From an uncultured Actinomycetota bacterium (GTDB taxonomy: Bacteria > Actinomycetota > Thermoleophilia > RBG-16-64-13): a stretch of DNA of 64,000 bases. The notes beneath the pieces were generated by a model. That model was given only the letters and a program-made list of their open reading frames with translations. It was not told the origin of the DNA and did no database searches. Numbering within the stretch: the first letter of the stretch is position 1; each line of letters begins with the position of its first letter. The stretch covers positions 129,674-193,673 of the forward strand of contig CAWGGI010000010.1 of the NCBI GenBank assembly GCA_963822135.1, in the 5' to 3' direction. The position numbers and the translations under genes are program-made. Shown in pieces: positions 35,723 through 57,498 of this stretch.

Positions 35723-35740
35723 AGACTGTACCAAGTGGCG

Positions 35741-35814
35741 CGGGACCGTCTCCCACCCCCCGGGGGCGGTCTCGACCAAGCGAACCGGGCCGGCGGCGGC
35801 GCCGCCGCCGGCCC
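35741..35814 (+). terminator. two GC-rich hairpins or palindromes after the binding-protein gene
   Basis: CGGGACCG..CCCCCCGGGGG..CGGTCTCG (35741-35774) and a perfect 28-bp palindrome GGGCCGGCGGCGGC|GCCGCCGCCGGCCC (35787-35814). No U-tract. Confidence 0.4.
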
Positions 35815-35898
35815 CGGCTCCTCGGACCACGTCGGCGTTTGGGTCAGCCAGAGAGCGTCGCTGCGAAGCCAAGCCAAGACGGCAAGGACAAAACGACC

Positions 35899-37005: not shown

Positions 37006-37046
37006 CAAGGCAAGGGAACAGACCTTTTTAGGATAGGAGAAGAAGC

Positions 37047-38843: not shown

Positions 38844-39299
38844 CTAGTCCTTCTTCAGCGGGGCAATCGCCTGGAAGGTCGGGTTGTTGAAGACGGAGTC
38901 CAGGCACTGGCCGCTCTCCTGCAGCTTGGCCTTGCCTACCGAGTAGCACACGCAGAAGGCCACTTCCATCAGCTCTTCGTCGGTTGCGCCGGCAGCCTTG
39001 GCGTTGCAGGCCTGCGGCAGAACGCCGTCCCAGTGGTTGTTCATCATGTACAGGCCGACCAGCAGCAGATATCGGGTCTTCGGCTCGAGGATCCCGCGAT
39101 CGAGCAGCCCAGTGAGCTGGTTCTGCGCGTACGTCTGCAGCATGTCGGGGCGGTTCTTCACCCAGAAGTCCAGGGACGGGTCACCCTTGTCTCCCGGCTT
39201 GTAGCCCGGGCGTTGCATGGCCCAAGACGCGAGGATCTCCTCCCCGGTCGTGGCTGCCTTCATGGCCTTGACGACTTCTTCTTCTTCCGGTCTTGGCAT
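38844..39299 (-). CDS. carboxymuconolactone decarboxylase (AhpD-like) family protein
   Basis: Intact 151 aa. LEPKTRYLLLVGLYMMNNHWDGVLPQACNAKAAGATDEELMEVAF is a CMD-domain-like core. Starts 2 nt after the upstream Fe-S oxidoreductase stop. Confidence 0.55.
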   Translation of the reverse strand: MPRPEEEEVVKAMKAATTGEEILASWAMQRPGYKPGDKGDPSLDFWVKNRPDMLQTYAQNQLTGLLDRGILEPKTRYLLLVGLYMMNNHWDGVLPQACNAKAAGATDEELMEVAFCVCYSVGKAKLQESGQCLDSVFNNPTFQAIAPLKKD

Positions 39300-39300
39300 C

Positions 39301-41535
39301 TCAGTTTTCCTCCTCGGCCTTGTTTGGTTCCGTTTGTCCAGTGGTGTCCGCTACCGCGGGTGCCTGCGCCGGTTCCGCGGTCTGCGCCGGCTCGGGTTGC
39401 TCGGCCGCGGCCGGCTCCGGCTGTGAGGCCAGCCGCGAGACCAGGATCTCCGCCAGGTCCATGGCCTTGACGGTCTCGCTCTTGCCCGCAGTGCCGATCC
39501 CATCTTCCATCATGGTGAGGCAATAGGGGCAGTTCACCCCGATGACCTCGGGCTGTTTCTCGAGCAGTTGGCCCGCCCGCATCTCGTTGACGCGATGGCC
39601 GGTCTCCTCCTCCATCCACATGCGTCCGCCGCCTGCTCCGCAGCAGATACTCTTGCTCTTGTTGCGGTCGGCCTCCAGCACGGTGACGCCGGGCACGGCT
39701 CTGAGCACCTGCCGGGGAGCGTCGTACTCCTGCTGGTAGCGGCCCAGGTAGCAGGAATCGTGATAGGCCACGCGCGACGGGGTCGCCGAAGTCCCAGCCC
39801 CGGATCGGCTGCCGGACCCATCGCCGGCCGCCACCGCGCCGCCATTACCGGCGGCGCCGAGCTTCAGTCTGCCCTGCTCCAGCAGCTGGGCCAGAAGCTG
39901 GGTATGGTGGACCACCTCGTAGGTGCCGCCGAAGCCCGGATACTCGTTCTTGAGCGTGTTCACGCAATGGGGGCAGGTGGCCACTATCTTGGTGACCCCC
40001 AGGGAGTTCAGAGTCTCGACGTTCTCCTGCGCGAGCGACTGGAACAGGTACTCGTTCCCGATCCGCCGCGCGGGATCGCCGCAGCACTTCTCCTCTTTGC
40101 CCAGGATCGAGAAGGTGACCCCGGCCTCGGTGAGCAATCGAGCCACAGCCTTGCTCACTTTGACGTTGCGGTCGTCGAAAGCGCCGGCGCACCCGACCCA
40201 GTAGAGGTACTCGCCCACCTCGCCGTCGCCGGCGAGCGGGATGCCGAGCTCCTTGGCCCAGTTGCCCCGGTTCTGATTGCCGACACCCCAGGGGTTGGAG
40301 TTCTTCTCGATGTTGCGCAGAGCGAGTTGGGCCTCTTTCGGGAAGTCGCCCACGTCGAGCACCAGGTTGCGGCGCATGTCGATGATCTTGTTGATGTGCT
40401 CGTTCTGGACCGGGCACTGTTCCTGGCAGGAATAGCAGGTGGTACAGGCCCATATCTCGTCCTCGGAGATGACATCGCCGATCAAGGTCTTTTCCGCTTC
40501 GGCGACGGCTGTCGCAGCGCCGGCCTTCGCTGCCGTGCCGGCCGCTGTGCCCGCTGCCGCACCGTCCGACCCGGCTTCGGCAGTGGCCTTGCCGTTCCGC
40601 TTCCGGGCGGCGCCCGTCTCGTCGAGGTGGTCTTTGAGCTTGGTCATCAGCAGCTTGGGATTGAGGGCCTTGCCGCTCTGCGTGGCCGGGCAGTGCTCCT
40701 GGCAGCGCCCGCATTCCGCGCAGGCGTACACATCGAGTAGCTGCTTGCGGGTGAAGCCCTCGATCTTGCTGACGCCGAACTCCTCGATGTCCTCGTTCTC
40801 CAGGTCGAGGGCGACGATCTGTGCGCCCCGCGGTTTGAGGTTACGGAACCACTCGTTGACCGGGCACATGATCAGGTGCATGTGCTTGGACACGGGGATG
40901 TAGACGAGGAACGCGAGGAGCAGGACGACGTGTATCCACCACAAGACCAATCTGCCGGTCTCCAGCGCCTCGGTGCTCAGCGACGTGAGAGCGTTCCCGA
41001 TGGCTGCGGAGATGAAAGCGCCGTCCATGGCGTCGGTGTAGTCGAGCGCGTAGTTGAAGCCGCTGTAGAGGAGCTCCGAGACGATGAGGAAGAAGATGAG
41101 CCCGAGGATGATCCCCGCCTCGGCACTCGGCTCCAGCCGCGTCTTTCTCACGACATAGCGGATGTAGGCGATGACGATGAGTCCCACCAGCACGATCAGG
41201 CTGAGCAGATCCTTGATGAACAGGAAGGTGTAGTTGTCTGCCCAGGGGAAGGTGAAGCCCGGGCTGATCCCCTCCGCGATGATCTGCAGCGTGCCGAAGG
41301 CGATGACGATGAAGCCCCAGAAGATGAAGAAGTGGATGACCCCCACTCTCTCCTTGAAGAGCTTCTTCTGGCCGAAGACCAGGGTGACGAAGCCGGCCGT
41401 CCGCGCGACAGGACGGTCCCACCTGGATTCCGGCCGACCCAGCATGACGAACCCCACGCGCCGGGCGAGGGCGTAGGCGAAGAAAGCCAGCGAGAGGACC
41501 AGGACCGCTATGAAGATGGCGCCCGAGACGGTCAA
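39301..41535 (-). CDS. membrane-anchored HdrD-like Fe-S oxidoreductase (Etf-associated, DUF224/CCG type)
   Basis: Intact 744 aa. About 6 N-terminal TM helices, CAECGRCQEHCP and CTTCYSCQEQCP clusters, two CCG regions (WVGCAGAF..EKCCGDP; HDSCYLGRY..SICCGAGGG). Ala/Gly-rich inserts and a Pro/Ala/Glu tail. Confidence 0.8.
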   Translation of the reverse strand: MTVSGAIFIAVLVLSLAFFAYALARRVGFVMLGRPESRWDRPVARTAGFVTLVFGQKKLFKERVGVIHFFIFWGFIVIAFGTLQIIAEGISPGFTFPWADNYTFLFIKDLLSLIVLVGLIVIAYIRYVVRKTRLEPSAEAGIILGLIFFLIVSELLYSGFNYALDYTDAMDGAFISAAIGNALTSLSTEALETGRLVLWWIHVVLLLAFLVYIPVSKHMHLIMCPVNEWFRNLKPRGAQIVALDLENEDIEEFGVSKIEGFTRKQLLDVYACAECGRCQEHCPATQSGKALNPKLLMTKLKDHLDETGAARKRNGKATAEAGSDGAAAGTAAGTAAKAGAATAVAEAEKTLIGDVISEDEIWACTTCYSCQEQCPVQNEHINKIIDMRRNLVLDVGDFPKEAQLALRNIEKNSNPWGVGNQNRGNWAKELGIPLAGDGEVGEYLYWVGCAGAFDDRNVKVSKAVARLLTEAGVTFSILGKEEKCCGDPARRIGNEYLFQSLAQENVETLNSLGVTKIVATCPHCVNTLKNEYPGFGGTYEVVHHTQLLAQLLEQGRLKLGAAGNGGAVAAGDGSGSRSGAGTSATPSRVAYHDSCYLGRYQQEYDAPRQVLRAVPGVTVLEADRNKSKSICCGAGGGRMWMEEETGHRVNEMRAGQLLEKQPEVIGVNCPYCLTMMEDGIGTAGKSETVKAMDLAEILVSRLASQPEPAAAEQPEPAQTAEPAQAPAVADTTGQTEPNKAEEEN

Positions 41536-41552: not shown

Positions 41553-42542
41553 CTAAGACGCGGCCTTACGGCGGCGGATCTCTTCCGTCAGCGCCGGCAG
41601 GACCTTGAACACGTCGCCCACCACGCCGAAGTCGGCGAAGGAGAAGATGGGGGCGTCGGGATCCTTGTTGATGGCCACGATGTACTGCGAGGTCTGCATG
41701 CCGGCACGATGCTGGATGGCGCCCGAGATGCCGCAGGCGATGTACAGCTGCGGAGAGACGGTCTTGCCCGTCTGGCCTACCTGCTGCTGATGGTGCTTCC
41801 AGCCGGCATCCACCGCCGCGCGGCTGGCGCCGACCGCGGCCCCGAGCTCGGCGGCCAGTTCCTCGACGATGGCAAAGCTCTCGGCGTTGCCCATCCCCCG
41901 GCCGCCCGAGACGATGATGGAGGCTTCCTCGAGGCTGATGACGCCCAGGTTCTCGCAGACCACGTCGACGATCTTGGTCAGGAGGCTGGAGGCGGCGAAG
42001 TCCACCGTCAAGGGGACGATCTGCGGGTCGCCCGCGACTTCTTCCCGCGCGAACGAGCTGGGCCGCACGGTGGCGATGACCGGCTCGGACGCCACTTCTT
42101 TCTCGGCGATGATGCCGCCGCCGAAGCACGGATGCGTCGCGACCACACGGCCGTCTCTCACGTCCAGCCCGGTGACGTCGACCAGGACGCCCACACCGAG
42201 GCGGGCCGCGCACGCGGCCGCCAGGTCGCGCCCGTCGGGCGAGCCGGCGAACAGCACCACTGCGGGATCGGCCGCTTTGATAGCCGCCATCGCCGCGTCG
42301 GTATAGGCCCCGGAGCGGAAGGTCTCGAGTTCAGGGCTCGTGGCGGTGTAGACCTTTGCCGCCCCGTAGCGGCCGGCCTGTACGGCCAACGGCTCGGTAT
42401 CGGCACCGATGACCGCCGCGCATACGTCGCCCCCGATATCGCCGGCGAGCGCACGGGCGCGGGTGAGACTCTCGAGCGATACGTTGGCGAGCCGGCCCTG
42501 GACCGCATCGCCGACGACAAGGATCCCCATCTTGTTACCCAC
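41553..42542 (-). CDS. etfA: electron transfer flavoprotein subunit alpha
   Basis: Intact 329 aa. [44 protein letters not shown]. Confidence 0.9.
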
Positions 42543-42555
42543 GGCTATCTCCTCT

Positions 42556-43332
42556 CTAGACGAGCTTTTCGCTCGCCAGGAAGTCGGCGATCTGCTTGGC
42601 CCCGTCGCCGTCGTCCTCGATCTTGACCCCGGCTTTGCGCGCCTCGGCTACGCGGGCGGTGGTGACGCGGGTCGCGGCGCCGGCCAGTCCGATGCGGGCG
42701 CTATCGAGACCGAGGGAGGCGGCGTCCTTGGCATCCACCGGCTTGCGCTTGGCTCCGAGGATGCCCTTCATGGTGGGGTAGCGGGGCTCGTTGATGCCCT
42801 TGATCACCGAGATGACGGCGGGCAACGGGCATTCATACGCGACGTAGCCCAGTTCCGTCTCCCGCCGTACGGCCAGGCTGGAGCCGTCCGCTTCCACCTT
42901 GGCCAGCGAGGAGAGCAGGGGCAGGCCCAGCAACTCCGCCACGGCAGCCGGCACGCAGCCGGTCTCGCCGTCGGTGGAGCGGTTGCCGAAGATCACGAGG
43001 TCGAACTGGAGAGTCTTGAGAGCCTCGGCCAGCGCATAGGCCGTACCCTGGACATCGGATCCGGCGAGAGCCGCGTCGGAGACCAGCACGGCGCCGTCGG
43101 CGCCCATCGCCAAGGCCTTGCGGATGGCCTCCTCGGCCTCTTCCGGGCCCATGCAGAGCACCGTGACCTCGCCACCGTGCGCCTCCTGGAGTAGGAGCGC
43201 CTCCTCGACCGCGTACTCGTCGTACGGGTTGAGGACGGAATCGACGCTACGGTCGAGCCGCCAGGATTCAGGGTCGAGCCGCTTCTCGGCTTCGGTGTCG
43301 ACCACCTGTTTCACGCAAACGACGATGTTCAC
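42556..43332 (-). CDS. etfB: electron transfer flavoprotein subunit beta
   Basis: Intact 258 aa with a GTG start. MNIVVCVKQVVDTEA..LNPYDEYAVEEAL..DLVIFGNRSTDGETG. Confidence 0.9.
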   Translation of the reverse strand: MNIVVCVKQVVDTEAEKRLDPESWRLDRSVDSVLNPYDEYAVEEALLLQEAHGGEVTVLCMGPEEAEEAIRKALAMGADGAVLVSDAALAGSDVQGTAYALAEALKTLQFDLVIFGNRSTDGETGCVPAAVAELLGLPLLSSLAKVEADGSSLAVRRETELGYVAYECPLPAVISVIKGINEPRYPTMKGILGAKRKPVDAKDAASLGLDSARIGLAGAATRVTTARVAEARKAGVKIEDDGDGAKQIADFLASEKLV

Positions 43333-43463: not shown

Positions 43464-44357
43464 ATGGAGTTGGACCTCTTCAGATCCTTTCTGGCGGTAG
43501 CCGACGCGCGCAGCTTCAGCCGCGCGGCGCGGGTCACCCATTCGACCCAGCCCACGCTCAGCCGGCAGATCGCCCGTCTCGAGGGCGAACTGGGCACCAG
43601 GCTGTTCGAGCGTTACGGACGCCACGTGGAACTCACCTTCAGCGGACAACTCCTCGTGCCCCTCGCCCAGGCGATCGTGGCGCGGACAGAGGACGCCATC
43701 AGCCTCATGCGGGAGCAGGCGGGGGCCGGAGCAAGCACCATCCGCTTCGGCGCAGTGGGCAACGTCTTCGCCCTGGTCCTCACCCCCATCCTGGTCTCGT
43801 TTCTCGCCACGTATCCTCGGGTGACGGTCGACCTCATCGAGAAGGACGACGCCGCTCTCGAAGAAGCCGTGATCAGCGGGGAACTCGACTGTGCCGTCAT
43901 CACTCCTTGGGGCTCCAGCCGGGTCGCGACACAGTACCTCCTGACCGAAGAGATCCTCCTCGTGGTCCCGTCGGGGCATAGATTGGCCGGCCTGAGTGCT
44001 GTGACGCTCGAGATGGCCGCCCACGAGCCGATACTCCTGCCCCGGGCGACCATGAACGCGGGCAACGTGATCGTCGACGCGTTTCGCCGGGCGGGCGTCG
44101 AACCCAAGTTCTCCGCCTACCGGGCCAACTATCCGGAACTGACCAAGGCGCTGGTGCGCAAAGGTCTGGGAGTGGCCCCCATGCCCAAGATGCTGGCAGC
44201 CCCCGACACCCTCGACGGACTGGTCGCCATCCCCTTCCAGAAGCCCCTGTCCCGAGATCTCGTCTTCATCTATCCGCGCGACCGGCCGCTGACGGCCGCG
44301 GCCCGCGCTCTCATGGCGCATGTCCGCGCCGGCGTGCAGCACCCCGGCGGCTCCTGA
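43464..44357 (+). CDS. LysR family transcriptional regulator
   Basis: Intact 297 aa. MELDLFRSFLAVADARSFSRAARVTHSTQPTLSRQIARLEGELGTRLFER. Confidence 0.9.
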   Translation: MELDLFRSFLAVADARSFSRAARVTHSTQPTLSRQIARLEGELGTRLFERYGRHVELTFSGQLLVPLAQAIVARTEDAISLMREQAGAGASTIRFGAVGNVFALVLTPILVSFLATYPRVTVDLIEKDDAALEEAVISGELDCAVITPWGSSRVATQYLLTEEILLVVPSGHRLAGLSAVTLEMAAHEPILLPRATMNAGNVIVDAFRRAGVEPKFSAYRANYPELTKALVRKGLGVAPMPKMLAAPDTLDGLVAIPFQKPLSRDLVFIYPRDRPLTAAARALMAHVRAGVQHPGGS

Positions 44358-44493: not shown

Positions 44494-45723
44494 ATGGACT
44501 TTAGACTGACCGACGTGCAGGAAATGACGCGCGACATGGTGCGCGACTTCGCCCAGAACGAAGTCAAGCCCGCCGCCCTGGAGCTGGACAAGAAGACCAA
44601 GCCTGAGGACTGTATCCCGTGGGATCTTCTCAAGAAGGCCTCCAAACTGGGCCTGCGGACCGCCGCTATCCCGGAAGAGTGGGGCGGCGAAGGCGCCGAT
44701 TACACCACGCTGGCCATCATCCTCGAAGAACTGGGTGCGGCCGACCACGGTTTCGCCAGCATCATCCGCGGCTGTTTCACCGAGTCGCCGCGGCTCGTGC
44801 ATGAGCTCAACCCCGAGCAACGGGACGAGTTCCTGCCCAAGTTCCTCAAAGACGACACCTTCCTGCTCGGTCTGGCCCGCACCGAGCCCGATGCCGGCAC
44901 CGACTCGCACTTCCTGTACGACGTGCCGGGCGCGTCCATCCAGACCTACGCCGAGAAGCAGGGCGACGAGTACGTCATCAACGGCACCAAGCACTTCATC
45001 TCCAGCGGCGGCGTGGCCAAGCTGTACTTCCTCTACGCCCGCACGGACAAGAAGGGCCCCATCTCCACCAGCATGAGCGTGTTCCTGGTGCCCTCCGACA
45101 CGCCCGGTTTCACCATCGGCCGCTTCCACAACAAGTTAGGACGTCGACTACTGCCCAACGCCGAACTGGTGTTCCAGAACGCCCGCATCCCCGCCCGCTA
45201 CCTCATCGGCAAAGAGGGCGAGGCCTGGGGTACCGAGGGCGAAGGCGGAGGCGGTCCACAGAAGGACTGGACCAAGGGTCCCGGCGCTCCCCCGCCGTTC
45301 GGACTGCTCGGTGCCGCCGTCAACCTGGGCACCGTCCGCGCCTGTTACGACGAGGCTCTCGCCTACTGCCGGCAGCGCATCCAGGGCGGCCGGCCGGTCA
45401 TCGAACAGCAGCACGTGGCCATCGACCTCGCGCGCATGAAGGTACAGATCGCGGCTGCTCAGGCCCTGCTGTACAAGTCGTGCTGGGCCTGGGAGACGCG
45501 CACCGATTACGATCCCAAGATGGGCATGCTGTTCAAGGCCTACGTCGACGAGATCGGCGTGCAGATCGCCAGCAAGGCCATCGGGCTCTTCGGCGGGATG
45601 GGCACCGGGGACGACGACTTCCCCATCCAGAAGTATCTCCGCGACGTGTACACGTTCCTCCACGGCTTCTCCACCACCGAGGTGGCGCTGCTCATCGGCG
45701 CCCCGACCGTGGACAAGGGCTGA
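44494..45723 (+). CDS. acyl-CoA dehydrogenase family protein
   Basis: Start MDFRLTD after GAAGGAG. ARTEPDAGTD, YVINGTKHFISSGG, FPIQKYLRDV. Carries an unusual Gly/Pro-rich insert GTEGEGGGGPQKDWTKGPGAPPP. Confidence 0.8.
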   Translation: MDFRLTDVQEMTRDMVRDFAQNEVKPAALELDKKTKPEDCIPWDLLKKASKLGLRTAAIPEEWGGEGADYTTLAIILEELGAADHGFASIIRGCFTESPRLVHELNPEQRDEFLPKFLKDDTFLLGLARTEPDAGTDSHFLYDVPGASIQTYAEKQGDEYVINGTKHFISSGGVAKLYFLYARTDKKGPISTSMSVFLVPSDTPGFTIGRFHNKLGRRLLPNAELVFQNARIPARYLIGKEGEAWGTEGEGGGGPQKDWTKGPGAPPPFGLLGAAVNLGTVRACYDEALAYCRQRIQGGRPVIEQQHVAIDLARMKVQIAAAQALLYKSCWAWETRTDYDPKMGMLFKAYVDEIGVQIASKAIGLFGGMGTGDDDFPIQKYLRDVYTFLHGFSTTEVALLIGAPTVDKG

Positions 45724-45789: not shown

Positions 45790-48321
45790 ATGGCAGAGAA
45801 GACCTTCGTGAACTGTACCGGTGGGGGCCCGATACGGGTCCATGTGGACGACGGCAAGATAACCAAGGTCCGTCCGCTGGTCTTTGACAAGACCGACGCA
45901 CCCTCGTGGACCATCGAGGCCGACGGCAAGAAGTACTCGCCGCCGCGCAAGGCCTGCGTGGCCACGTTCACCCTCACCGAGCGGGCACGCATCTACTCCG
46001 ACGACCGCATCATGTATCCCATGAAGCGGGTGGATTTCGATCCCAAGGGCGCTCCCGGCTCGACCGGAAAGGGCGGCCGCAACGCTCAGAACCGGGGCAA
46101 GTCGCCGTACGAGCGCATCAGCTGGGAGGAGGCGTTCGAGCTGGTGGGGAGCGAGATGATCCGCATCCGCGAGACCTACGGGCCCGAAGCCATCACCTCC
46201 CGCGCCTCCTCGCACCACAACTGGGGCAACGTCGGTTACCGCACCGGGGCCTGGGCCCGCTTCTTCAGCCTCATCGGCTTCACCGACATCTTCGACAACC
46301 CGGACAGCTGGGAAGGCTGGCATTGGGGCGCCACTCACACGTTCGGCTTCTACTGGCGGCTGGGCAATCCCGAGCATTACGACATGCTCGAGGACAACCT
46401 CAAGCACACCGAGCTCATCATCCACTGGGGCAACGACTGCGACACCACCCACGGCATCTACGGCGGCAACGAGTCGGCGCAGTGGCGGCTGTGGTTCCGG
46501 GACAAGGGTGTCAAGCAGATCTTCCTCGATCCCTATTTCAACTACACCGCCGCCCACGTGGGCGACAAGTGGATCTCGTACCGGCCGGGCACCACGTCGG
46601 CCCTGGCGCTCGGCATCGCCCACGTCTGGCTGACGGAGGGCACCTACGACAAGGAATACGTGGCTGCCAAGACCCTCGGCTTCGACGAGTTCAAGGCCTA
46701 TGTCCTTGGCGAGAGCGATGGCGTGCCCAAGACGCCGGAATGGGCGGCCGAGGTCTCCGACGTACCGGCCCGCACCATCGTCGCGCTGGCTCGGGAATGG
46801 GCGTCGCACCGCACCTGCCTCGCCGGCGGCACCAAAGGCGGCGAGGGCGGCTACTGCCGTCAGGCGTACGCCACCGAGCACGCCCGGATGCTGGTGCTTC
46901 TGCAGGCGATGCAGGGACTGGGCAAGCCGGGTGTGGCCATCTGGGGGACGGCCAACGGGCCGCCCTACAACCACACCCTCGACTTCCCCGGCTACGCGAG
47001 CGGGGCCTGCTTCAACCTGATGGCCGAGAAGCCGGTCAACAACCCGGTCAAGCAGCGCCTGTACCGGCTGACGGTGCCCGACGCGATCCTGGACGGGTCG
47101 ACGAGCTGGCTCGGCCAGACCTTCTGCGGCCAGTCGCTGGAACAGCAGTTCATGCCTTACACGTATCCGATGCCGGGTCATTCCGAAGTCAAGATGTTCT
47201 ACCGCTATGGCGGCGCCTTCCTTTCGACCATGGTCGACACCAACAAGTGGGTGCGGATGTACCAGAGCCCGAAGTTGGAGTTCGTGGTCAACCAGGACTG
47301 CTGGTTCTCCACCGAGACCCGGATGGCCGACGTCATCCTGCCGGCCTGCACCAACCTGGAGCGGGACGACATCAGCGAGTATGCGAGTTCGGGCGGCTAC
47401 TCGCTGCACGCTTCGGGCAGCGCCAACCATCGGATCATCATCTACCAGCAGAAGTGCATCGAACCCATCGGCGAGTCCAAGTCCGACTACGACATCTTCT
47501 GCGGCCTGGCCAAGAAGCTCGGCGTGTACGAGGAGTACACGGAGGGCAACACCTGGGAGCAGTGGATCGAGAAGATGTTCTACAAGTCGGACCTGCCCCA
47601 GTACGTCAAGTTCAAGGACTTCAAGAAGAAGGGCTACTTCCTGGTCCCGCAGATCGCCGACTACAAGCCCACCCCGGCGCTTCGCTGGTGGTATGAGGAC
47701 CGGGAGTGCGACACCCCCGACTTCGGCAACCCGAAGCGCGGCACCCAGAAGGCCAACGAGCTGGGCACCTACAGCGGCAAGATCGAGTTCGTGTCGCAGA
47801 GTCTGAAGGCCCATCTGCCCGACGACGAAGAACGGCCGCCCCTGCCGCGATACATCCCGAGCTGGGAAGGTCACGAGTCGGAGGCGTTCAAGCAGTATCC
47901 GCTTGCGCTCATCTCGCCGCACCCGCGGTTCACCTTCCACACCCACCACGACCACCATGTGCCCTGGTTGTCGGAGATCCCCGGACACCGCCTGCCCAAC
48001 GGCGGCTACTACTACTGGGTCGCCCGGGTACACCCGACCGATGCCGAGGCCAGGGACATCAAGCACGGCGACGTCATCGAGCTGTACAACGACAGGGCCT
48101 CGGTCCTCTGCGTGGCTCACGTGACCGAACGAGCCCGGCCGGGAGTGGTGCATTCGTACGAAGGCTCCGCCAGCTACGATCCCATCGAGCCGGGCAAGGC
48201 CGGGACCACCGACCGTGGCGGCTGCGTCAACCTGCTCACGCCGGGACGCATGCTCTCCCAGAACGTGCCGGGTATGGCTCCCAATTCCTGTCTGATCGAG
48301 ATCCGGAAGTGGGAGGCCTGA
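45790..48321 (+). CDS. molybdopterin oxidoreductase, pyrogallol-phloroglucinol transhydroxylase large-subunit (AthL)-like / resorcinol hydroxylase-like
   Basis: Intact 843 aa with no TAT signal and no N-terminal Cys cluster. YERISWEEA, SSHHNWGNVGYR, NPDSWEGWHWG, ILPACTNLERDDISE, SPHPRFTFHT and DRGGCVNLLTP match, from memory, blocks of the Pelobacter acidigallici enzyme. Confidence 0.7.
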   Translation: MAEKTFVNCTGGGPIRVHVDDGKITKVRPLVFDKTDAPSWTIEADGKKYSPPRKACVATFTLTERARIYSDDRIMYPMKRVDFDPKGAPGSTGKGGRNAQNRGKSPYERISWEEAFELVGSEMIRIRETYGPEAITSRASSHHNWGNVGYRTGAWARFFSLIGFTDIFDNPDSWEGWHWGATHTFGFYWRLGNPEHYDMLEDNLKHTELIIHWGNDCDTTHGIYGGNESAQWRLWFRDKGVKQIFLDPYFNYTAAHVGDKWISYRPGTTSALALGIAHVWLTEGTYDKEYVAAKTLGFDEFKAYVLGESDGVPKTPEWAAEVSDVPARTIVALAREWASHRTCLAGGTKGGEGGYCRQAYATEHARMLVLLQAMQGLGKPGVAIWGTANGPPYNHTLDFPGYASGACFNLMAEKPVNNPVKQRLYRLTVPDAILDGSTSWLGQTFCGQSLEQQFMPYTYPMPGHSEVKMFYRYGGAFLSTMVDTNKWVRMYQSPKLEFVVNQDCWFSTETRMADVILPACTNLERDDISEYASSGGYSLHASGSANHRIIIYQQKCIEPIGESKSDYDIFCGLAKKLGVYEEYTEGNTWEQWIEKMFYKSDLPQYVKFKDFKKKGYFLVPQIADYKPTPALRWWYEDRECDTPDFGNPKRGTQKANELGTYSGKIEFVSQSLKAHLPDDEERPPLPRYIPSWEGHESEAFKQYPLALISPHPRFTFHTHHDHHVPWLSEIPGHRLPNGGYYYWVARVHPTDAEARDIKHGDVIELYNDRASVLCVAHVTERARPGVVHSYEGSASYDPIEPGKAGTTDRGGCVNLLTPGRMLSQNVPGMAPNSCLIEIRKWEA

Positions 48322-48322
48322 G

Positions 48323-49144
48323 ATGACCCGGTATGGAATGGTCATAGACGTCACCAAGTGTAACGGCTGCTACAACTGCTTCATCACCTGCAAGGACGAG
48401 CACTGCGAGATCGACCACAAGCCCTACGCGGTCGGCCAGCCTCTGACCGGTCAGACCTGGATGAAGGTCATCGAGAAGGAACGGGGTCGTTATCCCAAGG
48501 TCAAGGTCGACTACATCGCGATCCCCTGCATGCAGTGCGAGGACCCCGCGTGCGCCGTGGCCGATCCGAAAGCCGTCACCAAGCGGAAGGACGGCATCGT
48601 CATCATCGACCCGGGCAAGGCCGTCGGCAACAAGGACGTGGTCACTCACTGCCCCTACCGCGCGGTCTACTGGAACGAAGAGAAGCAGGTCGGGCAGAAA
48701 TGCACCTTCTGCGCCCACCTGCTCGACAAGGGCTGGAAGGAGCCCCGCTGCGTGGAGGCCTGTCCCACCGGCGCCTTGATCTTCGGTGACCTCGACGATC
48801 CCAACAGCGAGGTGGCCACGCTGGTCGCCTCCGGCAAGACCGAGGCCTTCGGTCCCTACGGACTGGAGGAGAAGGTCCGTTACATCGGTCTGCCCAAGGA
48901 GTTCGTGGCCGGTGCGGTGGTGTTCGGCGACAAGGACGAGTGCGCCAAGGGTGTGACCGTGACCCTGGTGGGCCCGGATGACGCCGCCGCCACGACCGTG
49001 ACCGACGGCTTCGGCGACTTCGAGTTCGAGGGCCTGCCGGCCAACACGGCCTACACGGTGAAGATCGCTGCTGCGGGCTACGCGGCGAAGGAGATCCCGG
49101 TCAAGACCTCCCGGTCGGTGTACCTGGGGGACATCATCCTGTAG
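48323..49144 (+). CDS. Fe-S subunit, transhydroxylase small-subunit (BthL)-like: three 4Fe-4S motifs plus a C-terminal Ig-like/carboxypeptidase-regulatory-like domain
   Basis: Intact 273 aa, starting 1 nt after the large subunit. CNGCYNCFITCKDEH, CMQCEDPAC, CTFCAHL...CVEACP. The tail GVTVTLVG..TDGFGDFEFEGLPANTAYTVKIAAAGY is a typical beta-sandwich. Confidence 0.75.
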   Translation: MTRYGMVIDVTKCNGCYNCFITCKDEHCEIDHKPYAVGQPLTGQTWMKVIEKERGRYPKVKVDYIAIPCMQCEDPACAVADPKAVTKRKDGIVIIDPGKAVGNKDVVTHCPYRAVYWNEEKQVGQKCTFCAHLLDKGWKEPRCVEACPTGALIFGDLDDPNSEVATLVASGKTEAFGPYGLEEKVRYIGLPKEFVAGAVVFGDKDECAKGVTVTLVGPDDAAATTVTDGFGDFEFEGLPANTAYTVKIAAAGYAAKEIPVKTSRSVYLGDIIL

Positions 49145-49171: not shown

Positions 49172-49219
49172 GGGCGCCGGGCCGCCGCCGAGAGGCGGCG
49201 CCCGGCGCCTGTCGTTTTT
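49172..49219 (+). terminator. rho-independent terminator
   Basis: GGGCGCCGGGCCGCCGCC-gaga-GGCGGCGCCCGGCGCC followed by TGTCGTTTTT, 28 nt after the stop. Confidence 0.75.
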
Positions 49220-49268: not shown

Positions 49269-49731
49269 ATGACCACTATCTTCGTCGACGCCGATGCCTG
49301 TCCGGTCACGCGCGATGCCATCGCCGCGGCCCGATCTCGGTCGCTCCCCGTAGTGCTGGTCGCCAACCAGTCCCAGAACCTTTCTCGCTTTGCCGGACGC
49401 GCGGGGGTGGAGATCCTCCAGGTAGCGTCGGGACAGGACTCGGCGGATTTCGCCATGGTGCCCCGCCTGGCTCCGGGAGACGTCGTGGTGACAGGCGACA
49501 CCGGGCTTGCAGCCATGGCCCTGAGTCGAGGGTGCCGCGTCTTGAGTCCGCGAGGGCGCGAGTTTCTTGTCCGCAACCATCGATGCCGAACTGGCCATCC
49601 GTTATGCGGAGCAGCGCCATCGACGGGCGGGCGGCCGCACGACCGGACCCAGCCCCTTCCGCGAGGAAGATCGGGAACGGTTCCGAGAGGTGCTGACACG
49701 CCTGCTGGATGAGAGGGCCGACGCCGGCTGA
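49269..49731 (+). CDS. UPF0178 (YaiI/YqxD) family protein (1 frame change near 49570)
   Basis: MTTIFVDADACPV...LVANQSQ..VASGQDSADFAMV..GDVVVTGDTGLAA, then in the +1 frame IDAELAIRYAEQRHRRAGGRTTGPSPF. Confidence 0.7.
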
Positions 49732-50830: not shown

Positions 50831-51157
50831 CTGAAACATCGCGGAAGGAGCCGTACGCGTCGCCAGCTTTCTCACCCCTTCCCCAAACCTTGCGCGTAGG
50901 CTCGAGTCCCAACCGGGCCAAGATTCAGGACCCCTTCTGGCGCCCGTCGACCCGGTTTGCTAGTGTGCCAGTCGGAGAGGAGCAGCTAGGTCGGGATGAT
51001 CAGGTGGATCCGTCACAGGTAGACGAGGGGGAGGTCCCGGGGAGCCCCGTCCCGGAAGCTGACGCCTCGGACGCTAGCGCGGCCGAGGCTACCGCGGTAG
51101 AGGACACACTCGGAGGCGACACCGTCCCAGGGCGGGCGCTCGCGGAGCCGCGTTCCT

Positions 51158-51595: not shown

Positions 51596-51628
51596 TAACG
51601 GGGACAGGGCGCCTGTGGAGGAGGAATC

Positions 51629-52986: not shown

Positions 52987-53769
52987 ATGACTCAGAGATT
53001 CAGCGGCAAAGTGGCACTTGTGACCGGCGGCGCGTCCGGTATCGGGCGGGCGGGCGCGTTGTTGTTTGCCCGGGAGGGAGCCCAGGTGGTGGTATCCACC
53101 GACGCCAACCGCCTGGGCTGCGAAGAGACCTGCGACATGATCGCCGACGCCGGCGGGGAAGCCTCGTACGTCCAGTGCGACGTCTCCAAGGAAGCCGACG
53201 TGAAGGCGCTGGTGGAGGAGTGCATCCGGCGGCATGGCCGGCTGGACTTCGCCTTCAACAACGCCGGCATCGGACCCGACGGCAAACGCGTGCCCGTCGT
53301 GCCGATCGTGGATATGCCCGAAGACCTCTGGGACCGCACGCTCGACATCAACCTCAAGGGCGTGTTTCTGTGCCTCAAGTATGAGCTGCGGCAGATGATC
53401 GCGCAGGGGTCCGGCGCCATCGTCAACACCTCATCCGTGGGGGCTCTGAAGCCCTTGCCGGGATTCTGCGCCTACGGCGCCAGCAAAGGGGGCCTCAACG
53501 TGCTCACCAAGACGGCGGCGCTGGAAGGGGCCGAGCACAACGTGCGGGTGAACACCATCATGCCCGGTCCCACACAGAATACGCTGCTCTTCGACTATCT
53601 CACCACGGCCGACCCGGCCATGAAGACCGACATGGAGAAGTCCGTCCCGCTGGGGCGCCTAGGCTTCGCTACCGACATGGCCGAAGCGGTGATCTGGCTG
53701 TGCTCCGATGCGGCGAACTTCATCACCGGACAGTGCATCGGCGTCGACGGGGGCCTCACAGCACGGTAG
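52987..53769 (+). CDS. SDR family oxidoreductase
   Basis: Intact 260 aa. GKVALVTGGASGIGRA, NNAGIG, YGASKGG (YxxxK), ITGQCIGVDGG. Close paralogue of 12667-13435. Confidence 0.85.
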   Translation: MTQRFSGKVALVTGGASGIGRAGALLFAREGAQVVVSTDANRLGCEETCDMIADAGGEASYVQCDVSKEADVKALVEECIRRHGRLDFAFNNAGIGPDGKRVPVVPIVDMPEDLWDRTLDINLKGVFLCLKYELRQMIAQGSGAIVNTSSVGALKPLPGFCAYGASKGGLNVLTKTAALEGAEHNVRVNTIMPGPTQNTLLFDYLTTADPAMKTDMEKSVPLGRLGFATDMAEAVIWLCSDAANFITGQCIGVDGGLTAR

Positions 53770-53814: not shown

Positions 53815-54255
53815 ATGGCGGACAGCAGCACCAACAAGGACGTCGTCCTGCACTTCCTCACCGAAGTCTTCGTCAACCATGACATGACCCGGCTGGACGA
53901 ATACATGCGCGACGACTACATCCAGCACAATCCCGACTGTCCGCAGGGTAAGGCCGGCTTTGTGAAGTTCTTCGATGTCATCTTCCGGGCCATGCCGGAC
54001 TTTCGCTACCACGTAAGAGAGGTTGTGGCCGACGGTGACATGGTGATGGCCTGGGTCACGACGCAGGGCACCCACACCGGGAGCGAATTCCTGGGACAGG
54101 CGGCCGGCGGCAATCAGGTGAAGTTCGACGCAGTGGACATCTTCCGCATGCAGGACGGCCTCATAGCCGAGCACTGGGATGTAGCCGACACCTTCACCTT
54201 CTTCTCGCAGCTGGGCATCGTCCAGGGGGCGGAGGATCGGCAGAGGAAGGAGTGA
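53815..54255 (+). CDS. SnoaL-like / NTF2-fold protein (predicted ester cyclase family)
   Basis: Intact 146 aa. NKDVVLHFLTEVFVNHDMTRLDEYMRDDYIQHNP...DIFRMQDGLIAEHWDV. Confidence 0.7.
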   Translation: MADSSTNKDVVLHFLTEVFVNHDMTRLDEYMRDDYIQHNPDCPQGKAGFVKFFDVIFRAMPDFRYHVREVVADGDMVMAWVTTQGTHTGSEFLGQAAGGNQVKFDAVDIFRMQDGLIAEHWDVADTFTFFSQLGIVQGAEDRQRKE

Positions 54256-54259
54256 AACG

Positions 54260-55259
54260 GTGACCTTTTCGCCCTCACCCTCGTCTTCGGCGGCTCCGTC
54301 GCCCTTCGAGAGGTATGTCGTGAGGAGGCCTCTCGCGGAAGGCGGCTGTCCCGGCGTGCAGGGGCGCGATGCGTCACGGCGGGTGTTTCTGAGCGAGGCT
54401 CAGGTCCCAGGCTGCGGCCATTATCTGGACATGACCTGGATCGATTCGAGCTCGGAACCGGGCAGCTTCGCCACCGAAAGAGTGCTCGAGCACGACCAGC
54501 TCATATTGAGCATCGGGATGGACTGGCGGCGACCCCAGAAGCTCGGGGCCACGGCGGAGTTCTATCTCGGCGGACAGTCCATCGTCTTCAACACCACCAC
54601 GTCCCTCTTCATTCCCAAGGGCACGCCGTATGGGCCCCTGGGGTGGAAGGAGGTCAGGCTACCTTACGTGATGCTGTGCGCTGGTCTTCGGAAGCGGCGA
54701 GGAACCTGTCGGTCGGTGGTGGGACGCAGAGGCCGCCCGGGCGCACTCCGCGCCCCCCGTGCCCATCCCTGGGACGGCGGCCCCCGGCGCCGGCATCGAC
54801 TACGAGCAGTACGTCGTCCGCAGTCCGCTACGCGAGGCCGGTCCGGTGCACGTGGACGGCCGGCAGAACCCCACGATGACGTATCTGAGCGCGAATCAGA
54901 TCCCCGGGCTGAAGACGTACCTGGAGTTCGGGTGGATCTGGGACGTTCCCCAGCCGCCCATCCCCAAGATGCGCCACGATGACTTCGACGAGATCGTGGT
55001 GCACATCGGCAGCGACCCCGACTGTCCCGAGGACCTGGGCGGCATCCTGCAGTTCGGGGTGGGCGAGGATATGCTGGAGTTCGACACCACGCACTGCGCC
55101 TATCTGCCGCGAGGCCTGGACCACGGTCCCCTCGCGTGGACGGAGGTCCGTCGGCCGCTGATCGAGTTCGCCCTGATGCTGGGGGCCGGCACTCTGGCCG
55201 AGGGTTGGGCCAACAGCTTCTTCGACCTGCCCGACGGCGGGCGCCGAGGACCGAAATAG
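54260..55259 (+). CDS. bicupin-like protein of the uncharacterised cupin family (1 frame change near 54690)
   Basis: N-terminal half ..EHDQLILSIGMD..LFIPKGTPYGPLGW. C-terminal half (+1 frame) RHDDFDEIVVHIGSDPD..AYLPRGLDHGPLAW. Both halves are collinear with 13441-13869 and 55333-55818 but the metal ligands are partly replaced. Confidence 0.5.
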
Positions 55260-55332: not shown

Positions 55333-55818
55333 ATGAGCGACGAGGCCGGCGGATCGAAGTACGGCAAATACATCGTCACCGAGCGGAGGTTCGACTCCCG
55401 CGACGCGGCTCTGCCCCCGGGGGTGGATCCAGAAAGCATCACCAACACCGCTTCCCACCGCAAGATCATAGGCTTGGACGACTACGTGCTCAAAGGCTCC
55501 ATGTACACCGAGACGGTGTGGATGTGGCCGGGCGGCAGCGACATCTACCCCGAGACGGCCGAGCCCGCCTCCCACGCCCATGATTACGACGAGATCCTGG
55601 GGTTCTTCGGGACCGACTTCGCGGATCCCTATGATCTGGGCGGCGAGATCGAGCTGTGGATCGAGGACGAGAAGTTCCTGCTCACCAGGAGCAGCCTCAT
55701 CTTCATCCCCAAGGGCACCTACCACTGCCCGCTGGTGATCCATCGGGTGGACCGCCCGATCTTCCACTTCTCCTCGGGCCCGGGCGGCGCATACGCACAG
55801 GAGATGGCCGAGAAATGA
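55333..55818 (+). CDS. uncharacterised metal-binding cupin (paralogue of 13441-13869)
   Basis: Intact 161 aa. SHAHDYDEILGFFGTD (HxHxxxE), IFIPKGTYHCPLV, RVDRPIFHFSSGPG (compare RVDRPIFHFSTGTG in the paralogue). Confidence 0.6.
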   Translation: MSDEAGGSKYGKYIVTERRFDSRDAALPPGVDPESITNTASHRKIIGLDDYVLKGSMYTETVWMWPGGSDIYPETAEPASHAHDYDEILGFFGTDFADPYDLGGEIELWIEDEKFLLTRSSLIFIPKGTYHCPLVIHRVDRPIFHFSSGPGGAYAQEMAEK

Positions 55819-56730
55819 GCGACGACCGCCCCGACGGCCGCAGCCGCGCCGGCGACGGCGCGGGCCTGCAAGACGGCATCGGCGGCCCGGCCGCACCAGC
55901 GCTGGGCGTCCCTCCCATGACAACGCCCATCGGCGATCTTTCGAACCCTATGGACGTGGCGGGGAAGAACGTCGTGATCACAGGGGGGAGCGGGGGGATC
56001 GGGCTGGGTATCGCCCAGGCGTTCGCGCAGCGGGGAGCGCGGGTGGCCATCCTCGACGTGGATGTCGACGGGGGCAGGGCGGCGGCCGAGGGGCTTGCCG
56101 AGCGGGGGTCCGGCGAGGACGGTCCTCATCTCTCTGCCGCCTGCGATATCACCGACCGGAAGTCGGTCCGGGCGGCCGTGGACGCGGTGCTCGAGGCCTT
56201 CGGCCACATCGACATACTCGTGAACAACGCCGGCATCTCCGCGGTGAAGCCCTTTCTCGACATGGAAGACGACCTTCCCGAGTGGCACCGGGTCATCGAC
56301 GTGAACCTGCACGGCACCGCCAACATGACCCACGCCGTGGGCAACGCCATGCGGGCCGCCGGCCGGGGCGGGCTGATCATCAACATCTCCTCGGTGGGCG
56401 GGGCGACCTGCTCCGGGTCCAGAGAGATGCCCATGGTGGGATACGTGGCCTCGAAGGCGGCGCTCAACCATCTCACGCGGTCTTGGGCCATCGAGTTCGC
56501 CGAGTACGACATCCGCGTGAACTGCATCATGCCCGGTCCCACCCATTCCCGCCTGGACGCGCAACTCACTCCCGAGATGAGAGAGAGGAACAGTCCGCAG
56601 CATGCTCGACCGCCGGTGGGGCGAGCCGTTGGAGATCGGGGCGCTGTGCGTGTTCATGGCGTCGCCGGAGGGAGCGCATCTCGACGGGGTCGTGATTCAG
56701 CACGACGGCGGCTTCCTCTGCATCAACTGA
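55815..56730 (+). CDS. SDR family oxidoreductase (1 frame change near 56600)
   Basis: ATG 55815 overlaps the cupin stop (ATGA); the alternative start is ATG 55917. GKNVVITGGSGGIGLG, NNAGIS, YVASKAA (YxxxK), then in the +1 frame RRWGEPLEIGALCVFMASPEGAHLDGVVIQHDGG. Confidence 0.8.
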
Positions 56731-56835
56731 GCCGGCCGCCACGGCAGCGAGCCGGCGGCCCCAGCAGCGAGCCTGCCCTCGCGCCGGCAGTCGGCCGCGG
56801 CGCCGCAGGTCGGCCGCACCGGAGGCCGGACGCGG

Positions 56836-57498
56836 TCAGGCCGAGTCGGCGGCCAGCGCCTCGAGTCTCTCCTGGATGAACCGCTCGGCGTCCTGCAGGT
56901 CCTGCTCGTTGGGCCGGTCGCGGATGTCGCCGTGATAGGTGAGGGGCGTGGGGTCGTCGAGATATCGGCCCGGGCACGAGAAGCGGCCGACGCACTCGAA
57001 GCCGAGGTGCATGATCTCGAGCTCGAGCAGCGACAGGGTCGGCTCCGCCTCCTTGGGGCCGAACTCGTACCCGCTATACGTGGCGAAGACGACTGCTTTC
57101 GGCGAATCGGGGGCGAGTTCGATCCGGCTATGGCGGGCCACCAAGCTCTTGTCCTGCCAGGGCGACGGTGTCTCCGGCAATGGCTCGGTGATGTAGGGGA
57201 TGGTCTCGTCCCGCCAGCGCAGGGCATGCCGCGGGTCGACCCCGAGCCGCAGCCGGCGAAGGACGTTGAGGACCTCGTTGTAGGGCAGGTGTGATCTGAT
57301 GCCCGAGCCCACGCACACGAAGTCGTAGTCACGCGGGTCGAACTGGGGTCGCAGGATGTCGTCGGCGGTCTTGCGCACCTTGAAGCGGTCGCACTCCCAG
57401 CCGTTCCTCTCGAAGGTGGTCTGGAACCTCGCGGCCACCTTGTCGGTGTTCCCGGTGACGGACGCGTAGAAGATGAGGCTCCTCTTGCCCGCTTCCAT
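56836..57498 (-). CDS. flavodoxin-like protein
   Basis: Intact 220 aa. SLIFYASVTGNTDKVA is a flavodoxin FMN-phosphate loop. Starts 2 nt downstream of the TetR gene on the same strand. Confidence 0.6.
   Translation of the reverse strand: MEAGKRSLIFYASVTGNTDKVAARFQTTFERNGWECDRFKVRKTADDILRPQFDPRDYDFVCVGSGIRSHLPYNEVLNVLRRLRLGVDPRHALRWRDETIPYITEPLPETPSPWQDKSLVARHSRIELAPDSPKAVVFATYSGYEFGPKEAEPTLSLLELEIMHLGFECVGRFSCPGRYLDDPTPLTYHGDIRDRPNEQDLQDAERFIQERLEALAADSA

Follow-up and report, generated by a model that had tools for sequence, protein, structure and literature searches.

The subject of this analysis is a pair of adjacent genes for a putative molybdenum enzyme, termed alpha (large subunit) and beta (small subunit), in a stretch of 64,000 nucleotides from an uncultured Actinomycetota bacterium (GenBank assembly GCA_963822135.1, contig CAWGGI010000010.1, positions 129,674 to 193,673 of the forward strand). 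This whole stretch, which has a G+C content of about 65%, is referred to as the window, and coordinates are those of the window unless another locus is named. The pair lies beside genes for an acyl-CoA dehydrogenase (ACAD)-fold flavoprotein, for both subunits of an electron-transfer flavoprotein (ETF) and for a membrane oxidoreductase. The features of the region are as follows.

38844..39299, minus strand: CMD/AhpD-like protein of about 150 amino acids (aa), last gene of the etf operon, weak PF02627 match
39301..41535, minus strand: EtfD-type membrane ETF:menaquinone oxidoreductase, five predicted transmembrane helices, Fer4 (4Fe-4S dicluster) and two CCG domains
41553..42542, minus strand: EtfA, ETF large subunit (PF01012, PF00766)
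42556..43332, minus strand: EtfB, ETF small subunit (PF01012)
43464..44357, plus strand: LysR-type regulator (PF00126, PF03466), divergent from the etf operon
44494..45723, plus strand: atypical ACAD-fold flavoprotein; the open reading frame (ORF) opens at 44461, and orthologues start at MDFRL, which corresponds to 44494
45790..48321, plus strand: alpha (large) subunit, 843 aa, ATG start, intact
48323..49144, plus strand: beta (small) subunit, 273 aa, ATG start, intact
49193..49210, plus strand: terminator-like GC hairpin and T-run, 49 nt past the beta stop codon

The first-pass annotation, made from the DNA letters, had described two intact ORFs of 843 and 273 aa separated by 1 nt, and this was borne out both by the coordinates and by full-length alignments to proteins of known structure. 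The alpha start codon is preceded by the purine-rich sequence AGAAGAAGGGACGACGGG. When alpha was searched against the PDB using phmmer, the top match was the large subunit of pyrogallol hydroxytransferase (4v4c_A, E 3.8e-264, 882 bits), with query residues 7–842 aligned to residues 8–868 of the chain. The top match of beta was 4v4c_B (185 bits, query residues 1–271 to chain residues 1–272), and the E-values of these alignments exclude chance ORFs. The matched system is AthL/BthL of Pelobacter acidigallici (PDB 4V4C/4V4D/4V4E, formerly the 1TI6-type structure), which the window pair resembles in its two subunits, its homology over the full length and its cytoplasmic alpha subunit lacking an iron-sulfur (Fe-S) cluster. 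An exact-sequence lookup found no record of the window protein.

The Pfam domains identified in alpha were PF21423 (AhtL-like first domain, E 2.6e-20), PF00384 and PF01568. The sequence contains no RR motif of the twin-arginine (TAT) type and no predicted transmembrane helix, and an N-terminal Fe-S motif was not found, the first 70 residues holding just two Cys; the earlier view of alpha as a cytoplasmic subunit without TAT signal or N-terminal Fe-S motif was therefore upheld. Four sequence blocks that had been named as hallmarks of this enzyme type were each read literally in alpha, namely SSHHNWGNVGYR, NPDSWEGWHWG, ILPACTNLERDDISE and DRGGCVNLLTP. The Asp-Ser pair of NPDSWEGW aligned with Asp174 and Ser175 of AthL, in agreement with its earlier assignment as the active-site Asp and the Mo-ligand Ser. 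The runner-up PDB matches were trimethylamine N-oxide (TMAO) and dimethyl sulfoxide (DMSO) reductases at 255 bits or less. These next-best solved relatives (DorA, TorA and BisC, the DMSO, TMAO and biotin-sulfoxide reductases) also contain a Ser-ligated molybdenum bis(pyranopterin guanine dinucleotide) (Mo-bisPGD) cofactor and no N-terminal Fe-S cluster, but score 180–255 bits at about 33% identity and have neither a beta subunit nor PF21423. These features identify alpha as a cytoplasmic, Ser-ligated Mo-bisPGD protein without an Fe-S cluster of its own, belonging to the branch of the DMSO-reductase family that contains AthL and RhL, the large subunit of resorcinol hydroxylase (RhL/RhS) from Azoarcus anaerobius.

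The beta subunit contains 12 Cys in three groups (13/16/19/23, 69/72/77/110 and 127/130/143/147), all of which align with the cluster Cys of BthL. PF13247 covers the Fe-S part and PF13620, a CarboxypepD_reg beta-sandwich, was located at residues 197–259. Beta thus has three motifs of the [4Fe-4S] type and a beta-sandwich domain at its C-terminus, as the first reading had proposed and as are present in BthL. The neighbouring genes had also been recognised correctly: the ACAD-fold gene, the LysR gene and the divergent EtfB/EtfA genes with a membrane CCG/Fer4 protein were all recovered using Pfam and transmembrane prediction.

The ACAD-fold gene is separated from alpha by 66 nt and alpha from beta by 1 nt. 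These gaps, together with the hairpin after beta, suggest that the three genes form one transcription unit, for which the hairpin at 49193–49210 is the likely end. Terminator-like sites are no more numerous in the region than expected by chance, so that it is the position of this site alone that is suggestive. A sigma-70 promoter scan gave no match, the sigma-70 consensus not being informative for Actinomycetota.

Family placement and active-site residues

Relatives of alpha were collected using one genome per species. More than 583 stretches encoding relatives were obtained, the best 80 of which all came from metagenome-assembled genomes (MAGs); the closest, from an uncultured Gaiellales bacterium, was 93% identical, which makes a Gaiellales/Thermoleophilia origin of the window probable. 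In addition to AthL/BthL and RhL/RhS the family is reported to include DbhL/DbhS, the RhLS-like 3,5-dihydroxybenzoate hydroxylase of Thauera aromatica AR-1. Trees were calculated by neighbour-joining with 200 bootstraps, with DbhL not included and RhL (UniProt A0N0U2) entered as residues 1–400 only, taken from Data Set S1 of PMC7327174; the N-terminal tree that includes RhL comprised 367 columns. AthL residues 8–868 were rebuilt from the HMMER alignment, and the published residue numbers landed on the expected letters (H144, Y152, R153, D174, S175, W176, W354, Y404 and Y560).

AthL and the RhL-like proteins formed a single clade with 100% bootstrap support. Alpha was placed in the sister group of this clade, made up of proteins about 835 aa long that are known only from MAGs, with support of 100% in the full-length tree and 88% in the N-terminal tree with RhL, and the joint clade of 835-aa, AthL and RhL-like proteins was recovered at 100%. 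Within the 835-aa clade alpha belongs to subclade A (100%), which consists of proteins from uncultured Actinomycetota (Gaiellales/Thermoleophilia). RhL residues 1–400 grouped at 100% with P0122, L031b and L059b, leaving alpha outside, and these group mates are ORFs of 987–1038 aa in first-start models. The identity of alpha was 48.5% to AthL (about 48–51% across alignments) and 49% to RhL residues 1–400 over approximately 370 residues, compared with 58% between RhL and AthL and 63–66% between RhL and its own relatives. A search with AthL itself gave at least 120 clusters that were 61–96% identical to AthL and mostly 853–886 aa long, including members from Clostridiales, Peptococcaceae, Parasporobacterium paucivorans and one Thermoleophilia MAG.

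The AthL orthologue group is therefore large, and alpha lies outside it. The trees place the window enzyme in a distinct sister clade, outside the orthologue groups of both characterised enzymes, and show that the family comprises no fewer than three deep lineages, of which two are the AthL and RhL-like clades and the third is large and uncharacterised. The earlier proposal of an AthL/BthL or RhL homologue pair consequently holds at the level of the family, given the scores of 882 and 185 bits and the retained catalytic set, but fails at the level of orthology, and the expected placement of alpha inside the transhydroxylase/resorcinol hydroxylase clade was contradicted by both trees.

The conservation expected for the active-site His, Asp, Ser and Tyr residues was observed: His144, Tyr152, Asp174, Ser175, Tyr404 and Tyr560 (AthL numbering) are identical in alpha and in all 14 clade-A sequences. 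More widely, these six columns and W176 do not vary in AthL, in clades A and A2 or among those RhL-like sequences that extend over them; clades B and C each depart from this singly at Y560. The catalytic His/Asp/Tyr set is absent from the outgroup P0247. The three lineages are distinguished by position 153, position 354 and the length of the loop that follows Tyr404 (AthL residues 405–440), as listed here.

AthL clade (24 relatives and AthL): position 153 Arg (one Lys); position 354 Trp in 25/25; loop of 31–36 residues
RhL-like: position 153 Tyr; position 354 Phe, Leu, His or Glu; loop of 29 residues
835-aa clade: position 153 Arg (subclades A, B) or Lys (C); position 354 Glu in 42/47; loop of 15–19 residues

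In alpha the residue at AthL position 354 is Glu (GGEGG, compared with GGWGG in AthL), as it is in 14/14 clade-A sequences, and the loop has 16 residues compared with 36 in AthL. Seven other 835-clade sequences in one alignment also combine E354 with a loop of 15–19 residues. Alpha accordingly shares Ser175, Asp174, His144, Tyr152, Arg153, Trp176, Tyr404 and Tyr560 with AthL, Arg153 being found throughout clade A, but differs from AthL in residue 354, in the loop, in its overall identity and in its clade. With RhL it shares membership of the family, the D-S-W motif of the Mo site and His144/Tyr152, but it has Arg at position 153 where RhL-like proteins have Tyr, is only 49% identical over the N-terminal part and lies outside the grouping of RhL with AthL. 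The alignments show that the catalytic machinery has been kept, with a pocket or lid region that differs systematically between lineages.

Members of two of these lineages were found within a single genome. The Thermoleophilia MAG GCA_026415615.1 (loci L004 and L091) contains two family members, P0408 and P0003, which lie on separate contigs and are 53.5% identical to each other. P0408, at 77% identity to AthL, combines Trp354 with the long loop; a beta subunit gene follows it, and no ACAD or ETF gene lies in its neighbourhood. P0003, which shares 78% identity with the window alpha, combines Glu354 with the short loop and is encoded in the ACAD/ETF arrangement. One genome can thus hold an AthL-clade orthologue together with an ACAD/ETF-linked paralogue.

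The surroundings of athL-bthL at locus L090, where alpha is 96% identical to AthL, contain UbiD-family, CoA-transferase and LigB-family genes and no ACAD/ETF genes, a context that would fit the fermentation of gallate and pyrogallol. Unlike this AthL-type locus, the window pair is linked to ACAD-fold, ETF and EtfD genes. No phloroglucinol reductase, cyclohydrolase, UbiD-type gallate decarboxylase or CoA transferase was recognised among the genes annotated at 33–63 kb of the window, the range covered by the search for the gallate/phloroglucinol pathway; pathway genes elsewhere in the genome are possible.

The linked flavoprotein genes

The conservation of the gene neighbourhood was measured by tblastn of the window proteins against all fetched loci, which included 16 related clade-A loci with alpha subunits 74–93% identical to that of the window. 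In 15 of these 16 loci the gene directly upstream of alpha is one for an ACAD-fold protein (59–95% identity), located approximately 1.2–1.3 kb from alpha in the same orientation. EtfB and EtfA were each found in 14/16 loci, the CMD-like gene in 13/16 and the LysR orthologue in 14/16, in 13 of them with the position and orientation seen in the window. In most clade-A loci the ACAD-alpha-beta genes face the LysR gene and a set of genes in the order etfB-etfA-(ETF:quinone oxidoreductase)-CMD-like, and by tblastn this ACAD/ETF arrangement was found in no fetched locus of other subclades.

The electron acceptor of the ETF is not the same protein throughout clade A. It is of the EtfD type in the window and in L001, L007, L009, L016 and L041, and a canonical ETF:quinone oxidoreductase (ETF-QO, PF05187) in L004 (3914–5605), while in L005 a long ORF at the acceptor position (3072–5303) contains an ETFQO_UQ-bd domain and a C-terminal CMD-like sequence. 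The acceptor has been swapped non-orthologously with the remaining module unchanged, which argues for selection on the function of the module as a whole.

The window protein at 39301–41535, earlier described as HdrD-like, matched EtfD of Mycobacterium smegmatis (9ojn_A, from the cryo-EM structure 9OJN) with 421.7 bits. In mycobacteria the electrons of acyl-CoA dehydrogenases reach menaquinone by way of ETF and EtfD (PMC8593149, PMC13083937), and the established donors of ETF are flavoprotein dehydrogenases (PMC13083937). The suggestion that Etf and the HdrD-like protein carry electrons to quinone is thus retained as a chain, the HdrD-like protein being an EtfD homologue, but the canonical donor to this chain would be the ACAD-fold protein rather than the Mo enzyme. 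The window resembles the mycobacterial FadE-EtfAB-EtfD chain, which comes from the same phylum, in having EtfB, EtfA and EtfD homologues encoded beside an ACAD-fold gene. It differs in that the canonical Glu is missing from the ACAD-fold protein, whose gene is apparently co-transcribed with those of a Mo enzyme, and in the presence of a CMD-like gene within the etf operon. The best PDB matches of EtfB were 5ol2_B, 4kpu_B and 6fah_B, and its greatest similarity is to bifurcating-type ETFs.

The ACAD-fold protein contains the N, M and C domains of acyl-CoA dehydrogenases (PF02771, PF02770 and PF00441), although its best PDB match, 5lnx_A, reached just 170 bits and none of the NCBIfam equivalogs reached its cut-off. 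Bcd of the bifurcating Bcd-Etf complex was among the best PDB matches. The canonical Glu motif YEGT, at the position of Glu376 in MCAD, reads LHGFSTTE, and in the three best PDB alignments either the Phe or the His of this motif stands opposite the catalytic Glu. Across 14 ACAD-fold orthologues neither LHGFSTTE nor a Gly/Pro-rich insertion (GEAWGTEGEGGGGPQKDWTKGPGAPPPFG) shows any variation. An alternative base, as at the IVD/LCAD position, may be used by this protein. Assignment as a group-D flavin monooxygenase of the DszC or HpaH-C2 type was considered and rejected, as the DszC model gave 38.6 bits compared with 150–200 bits for true ACAD models, and homologues are found beside oxygen-sensitive glycyl-radical enzymes.

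The CMD-like protein is 72–91% identical across the clade-A loci, and its association with the ACAD-fold protein extends beyond them. Three distant members of the ACAD subfamily were examined (L087, L088 and L089), which are 51–58% identical and keep the His; proteins of this kind are referred to as ACAD(His). A CMD-like orthologue lies directly upstream of the ACAD(His) gene in two of the three. At L089 the pair is found among Tct-type transporter genes and M24 hydrolases. At L088 no CMD-like gene precedes the ACAD-fold gene, which is flanked by Tct-type transporter genes on one side and a DHDPS-family gene on the other. The unit of CMD and ACAD(His), with or without ETF, is portable and combines with different front-end enzymes, which favours a role for ACAD(His) in oxidising a small molecule itself over that of a mere electron adaptor for the Mo enzyme.

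At L087 (4937–10396, Chloroflexota MAG GCA_042582865.1) the CMD-like and ACAD(His) genes lie between those for a glycyl-radical enzyme and a radical-SAM activase, with EtfB and a ferredoxin-fused EtfA nearby, a combination without earlier description. The best PDB match of this glycyl-radical enzyme was hydroxyphenylacetate decarboxylase (7e7l, 601 bits). A link of the ACAD(His) and CMD pair to hydroxyproline or proline, raised by the M24, DHDPS-family and glycyl-radical neighbours, was dropped, the L087 enzyme scoring 601 bits against 7e7l and 437 bits against HypD.

Possible function of the module

The reading favoured here, which is given about an even chance of being correct, is that alpha and beta carry out a hydroxylating or hydroxyl-transfer step in a net oxidative pathway feeding menaquinone. 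The Mo subunit, with its Ser175/Asp174/His144/Tyr404/Tyr560/Arg153 set, would add a hydroxyl group to a phenol-like, electron-rich ring held in a pocket altered by the replacement of Trp354 with Glu and by a shortened lid loop; water or a co-substrate would be the source of the hydroxyl. The neighbouring step of the pathway would be a two-electron oxidation by the ACAD-fold flavoprotein, from which electrons would pass to EtfAB, then EtfD and finally menaquinone. Because the electrons of the ACAD-fold protein would leave in this way, the module would be net oxidative and respiratory, in place of the redox-neutral isomerisation of pyrogallol to phloroglucinol carried out by fermenters. As the enzyme is distinct from AthL and RhL and its genes adjoin those for an unusual flavoprotein and for a chain that leads to quinone, the label "pyrogallol transhydroxylase" is probably wrong for it. 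A broader proposal can be made only tentatively: that the 835-aa clade is not one of transhydroxylases, and that the actinobacterial Mo/Fe-S enzyme, ACAD(His) and the CMD-like protein may constitute an undescribed, oxygen-independent hydroxylation/oxidation module for a phenolic or electron-rich cyclic substrate, with electrons passing via ETF and EtfD or ETF-QO to the respiratory chain.

Several points count against a net oxidative hydroxylation module. Gene adjacency shows co-function and not the identity of the ETF donor, and the ACAD-fold protein, having no canonical Glu, may be something other than an ordinary dehydrogenase. The similarity of EtfB to bifurcating-type ETFs leaves the direction of electron flow ambiguous. 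Alpha does not differ from AthL in its core catalytic residues or in Arg153, which makes pyrogallol-type chemistry compatible with the window enzyme, and the role of Trp354 as a residue of the substrate pocket is putative. The trees are neighbour-joining rather than maximum-likelihood trees, with the first 400 residues of RhL and no DbhL, and both the substrate and the reaction direction proposed for the 835-aa clade are deduced from sequence.

A possible, though rather doubtful, alternative is that the pair is a net water-dependent hydroxylase like resorcinol hydroxylase, whose own two electrons would reach quinone, as the first reading had suggested. They would leave through the Fe-S clusters of beta to the ACAD-fold protein and/or ETF and then to EtfD and menaquinone, the ACAD-fold protein serving mainly as a redox adaptor. 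RhLS, as a net hydroxylase, depends on an electron acceptor, which would suit a module with a connection to quinone. In most clade-A loci the conserved genes next to the enzyme encode every part of such a chain, beta keeps 12/12 cluster Cys, the conserved core showed neither a CoA ligase nor a CoA transferase, and the missing catalytic Glu of the ACAD-fold protein would be consistent with an adaptor. Trimethylamine dehydrogenase provides a precedent for the transfer of electrons from an Fe-S cluster to ETF. What lowers this alternative is the occurrence of the ACAD(His) and CMD pair without a Mo/Fe-S partner at L087 and L089, and of the ACAD gene alone at L088, which argues that the flavoprotein pair has a small-molecule substrate for itself; a Mo enzyme whose Fe-S chain feeds ETF is rated lower for that reason. 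It is also at odds with the established ETF donors, which are flavoprotein dehydrogenases (PMC13083937).

The direction of electron flow could also be the reverse, with ETF and EtfD delivering electrons to a pathway in which a ring hydroxyl is removed, or the substrate could be of an acyl-CoA or heterocyclic type. Such a reductive or non-phenolic role is considered unlikely. It would account for the resemblance of EtfB to bifurcating-type ETFs, for the presence of Bcd from the bifurcating Bcd-Etf complex among the best ACAD matches and for the acyl-CoA synthetase, enoyl-CoA hydratase and DUF35/thiolase genes beside the clade-C relatives, and members of the DMSO-reductase family are often reversible. 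However, polyphenols are the substrates of the two characterised relatives, which have the full set of catalytic residues in common, and several clade-A loci carry a canonical ETF-QO instead of EtfD. The established role of EtfD, moreover, is transfer from ETF to menaquinone (PMC13083937).

It is quite unlikely that the pair is a genuine pyrogallol-phloroglucinol transhydroxylase, that is a functional AthL/BthL orthologue for which the ACAD/ETF genes are unrelated or belong to a downstream pathway. AthL is the best solved homologue, alpha has His144, Arg153, Asp174, Ser175, Tyr404 and Tyr560 as in AthL, and such homologues are routinely annotated in this way in MAG studies (PMC3971608, PMC4959651, bioRxiv 10.1101/2024.10.22.619724). 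Against these similarities stand the position of alpha outside the AthL clade, the W354E replacement and shortened loop where Trp and the longer loop are kept in 25/25 AthL-clade sequences, and the coexistence of a true AthL orthologue with the paralogue in one genome. No UbiD-type gallate decarboxylase, CoA transferase or phloroglucinol-pathway gene was recognised nearby, unlike at L090, and a tight linkage to ACAD/ETF genes would be unexpected for a redox-neutral isomerase. A coincidental neighbourhood around a stand-alone alpha-beta enzyme is very improbable, since the arrangement recurs in most clade-A loci at 74–93% alpha identity, in several MAG lineages, and persists through the non-orthologous replacement of the ETF acceptor, even though alpha has different neighbours or none in other subclades and the Dehalococcoidales copies mostly have no adjoining beta gene.

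The existence of gene pairs of this kind is not new, MAG homologues having been noticed since 2013 and annotated as pyrogallol transhydroxylase (PMC3971608, PMC4959651, bioRxiv 10.1101/2024.10.22.619724, 10.64898/2026.07.17.739263). In the literature reached, no published account was found of the split into three deep lineages with diagnostic residues, nor of one lineage whose genes are tightly linked to those for an atypical ACAD-fold protein, for a CMD-like protein and for an ETF chain. Genome-based accounts of how polyphenols are turned over anaerobically in soils, peat, sediments and guts currently give every AthL/BthL homologue the label of pyrogallol transhydroxylase (PMC3971608 and PMC4959651 among others, as well as recent preprints from peat and marine work). 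The lineages differ in pocket residues and gene partners, and two of them can occur in one genome. If the window encodes a respiratory hydroxylase module, models of carbon flow through phenolics in anoxic and micro-oxic soils would need correcting, and a new, ETF-coupled type of reaction for Mo-bisPGD enzymes would become testable. If the enzyme is an ordinary transhydroxylase instead, the conserved ACAD/ETF linkage would still need to be explained.

Remaining genes of the window and of related loci

A second group of genes, termed the accessory block, lies downstream of the module.

52987..53769, plus strand: short-chain dehydrogenase/reductase (SDR), by Pfam
53815..54255, plus strand: SnoaL-like protein, by Pfam
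54260..55259, plus strand: frameshifted 316-aa-type protein
55333..55818, plus strand: weak cupin of 161 aa, by Pfam
about 55965..56879, plus strand: second SDR, by Pfam

The block is present in the same order in the nearest relatives only (L001 and L007), and as it is absent from L004 and L005 it was not counted as part of the core. At L001 it is followed by genes for a TetR regulator, a Zn-ADH, an aldo-keto reductase and an HpcH/HpaI aldolase. The SDR at 52987–53769 was considered as a phloroglucinol reductase and rejected, because generic SDRs and no such enzyme were found among the 60 best of 76 PDB matches. The 316-aa homologue is split over two frames at about position 54679, the first ORF running into an Arg-rich nonsense tail, and is intact at L001 (16525–17475); the split is either a frameshift mutation, which would make the gene a pseudogene, or a sequencing or assembly error. 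The 316-aa-type protein is a tandem duplicate of the adjoining 161-aa weak-cupin protein.

Between beta and the first SDR, the window contains genes for a YaiI/DUF188 protein, a Kelch-repeat protein, NrfH and NrfA, the cytochrome c nitrite reductase (49269–52927). An MFS transporter gene occupies the position of this Nrf block at L001 and L002, and the block was found in 0/86 related loci. The segment looks like a lineage-specific insertion or replacement, which would give the organism a nitrite-ammonifying respiratory option. Upstream of the module (33279–37961) are genes for the ATPase of a branched-chain-type ABC transporter, a periplasmic binding protein, a URO-D-family protein and an FMN-reductase-like protein; the URO-D family includes corrinoid methyltransferases.

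The other subclades of the 835-aa clade differ in whether the beta gene is present. Most of the Dehalococcoidales copies, which are 64–68% identical to the window alpha, have no adjoining beta gene, and approximately 30 such alpha genes (L006, L020–L047) were found in a conserved housekeeping neighbourhood of UvrC, HAD and DUF72 genes. Replacement of beta by a flavodoxin in this subclade was rejected as a general explanation, being seen in one (L006) of the 24 loci with room downstream. The beta gene is kept in the Desulfobacterota and Proteobacteria copies, which are 60–63% identical and include one from Methanoperedens. In two Desulfocapsaceae-type MAGs (L086, 603–9888; L067, 10001–19846) the genes after the alpha-beta pair encode an SDR, a split acyl-CoA synthetase of the ADP-forming type, an enoyl-CoA hydratase, a DUF35 protein with an OB fold and a thiolase-like protein, assigned by Pfam for L086 and by the same order and sizes of ORFs for L067. 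These genes could point to a CoA-dependent downstream route, for example of the phloroglucinol type, or to something else.

Further molybdenum enzymes are encoded beside some of the family members. Locus L059 (245–12097), from an uncultured betaproteobacterium, contains three: a clade-C alpha-beta pair with a LysR gene, an RhL-like ORF of 1038 aa (first-start model) that is 66% identical to RhL residues 1–400, and a distant DMSO-reductase-family protein of 729 aa. Several clade-A loci carry additional AthL-like paralogues just 3' of the beta gene, at L041 (13347–16034), L013 (13372–16017) and L019 (13363–16014), and L010 contains two of them. These paralogues are approximately 36% identical to the window alpha, some have beta-like genes of their own, and they group with P0123–P0135 on another deep branch. 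The three full-length ORFs, at L041, L013 and L019, are 880–895 aa long with an N-terminal extension, and a Pfam scan of the L041 ORF gave a weak match to PF21423.

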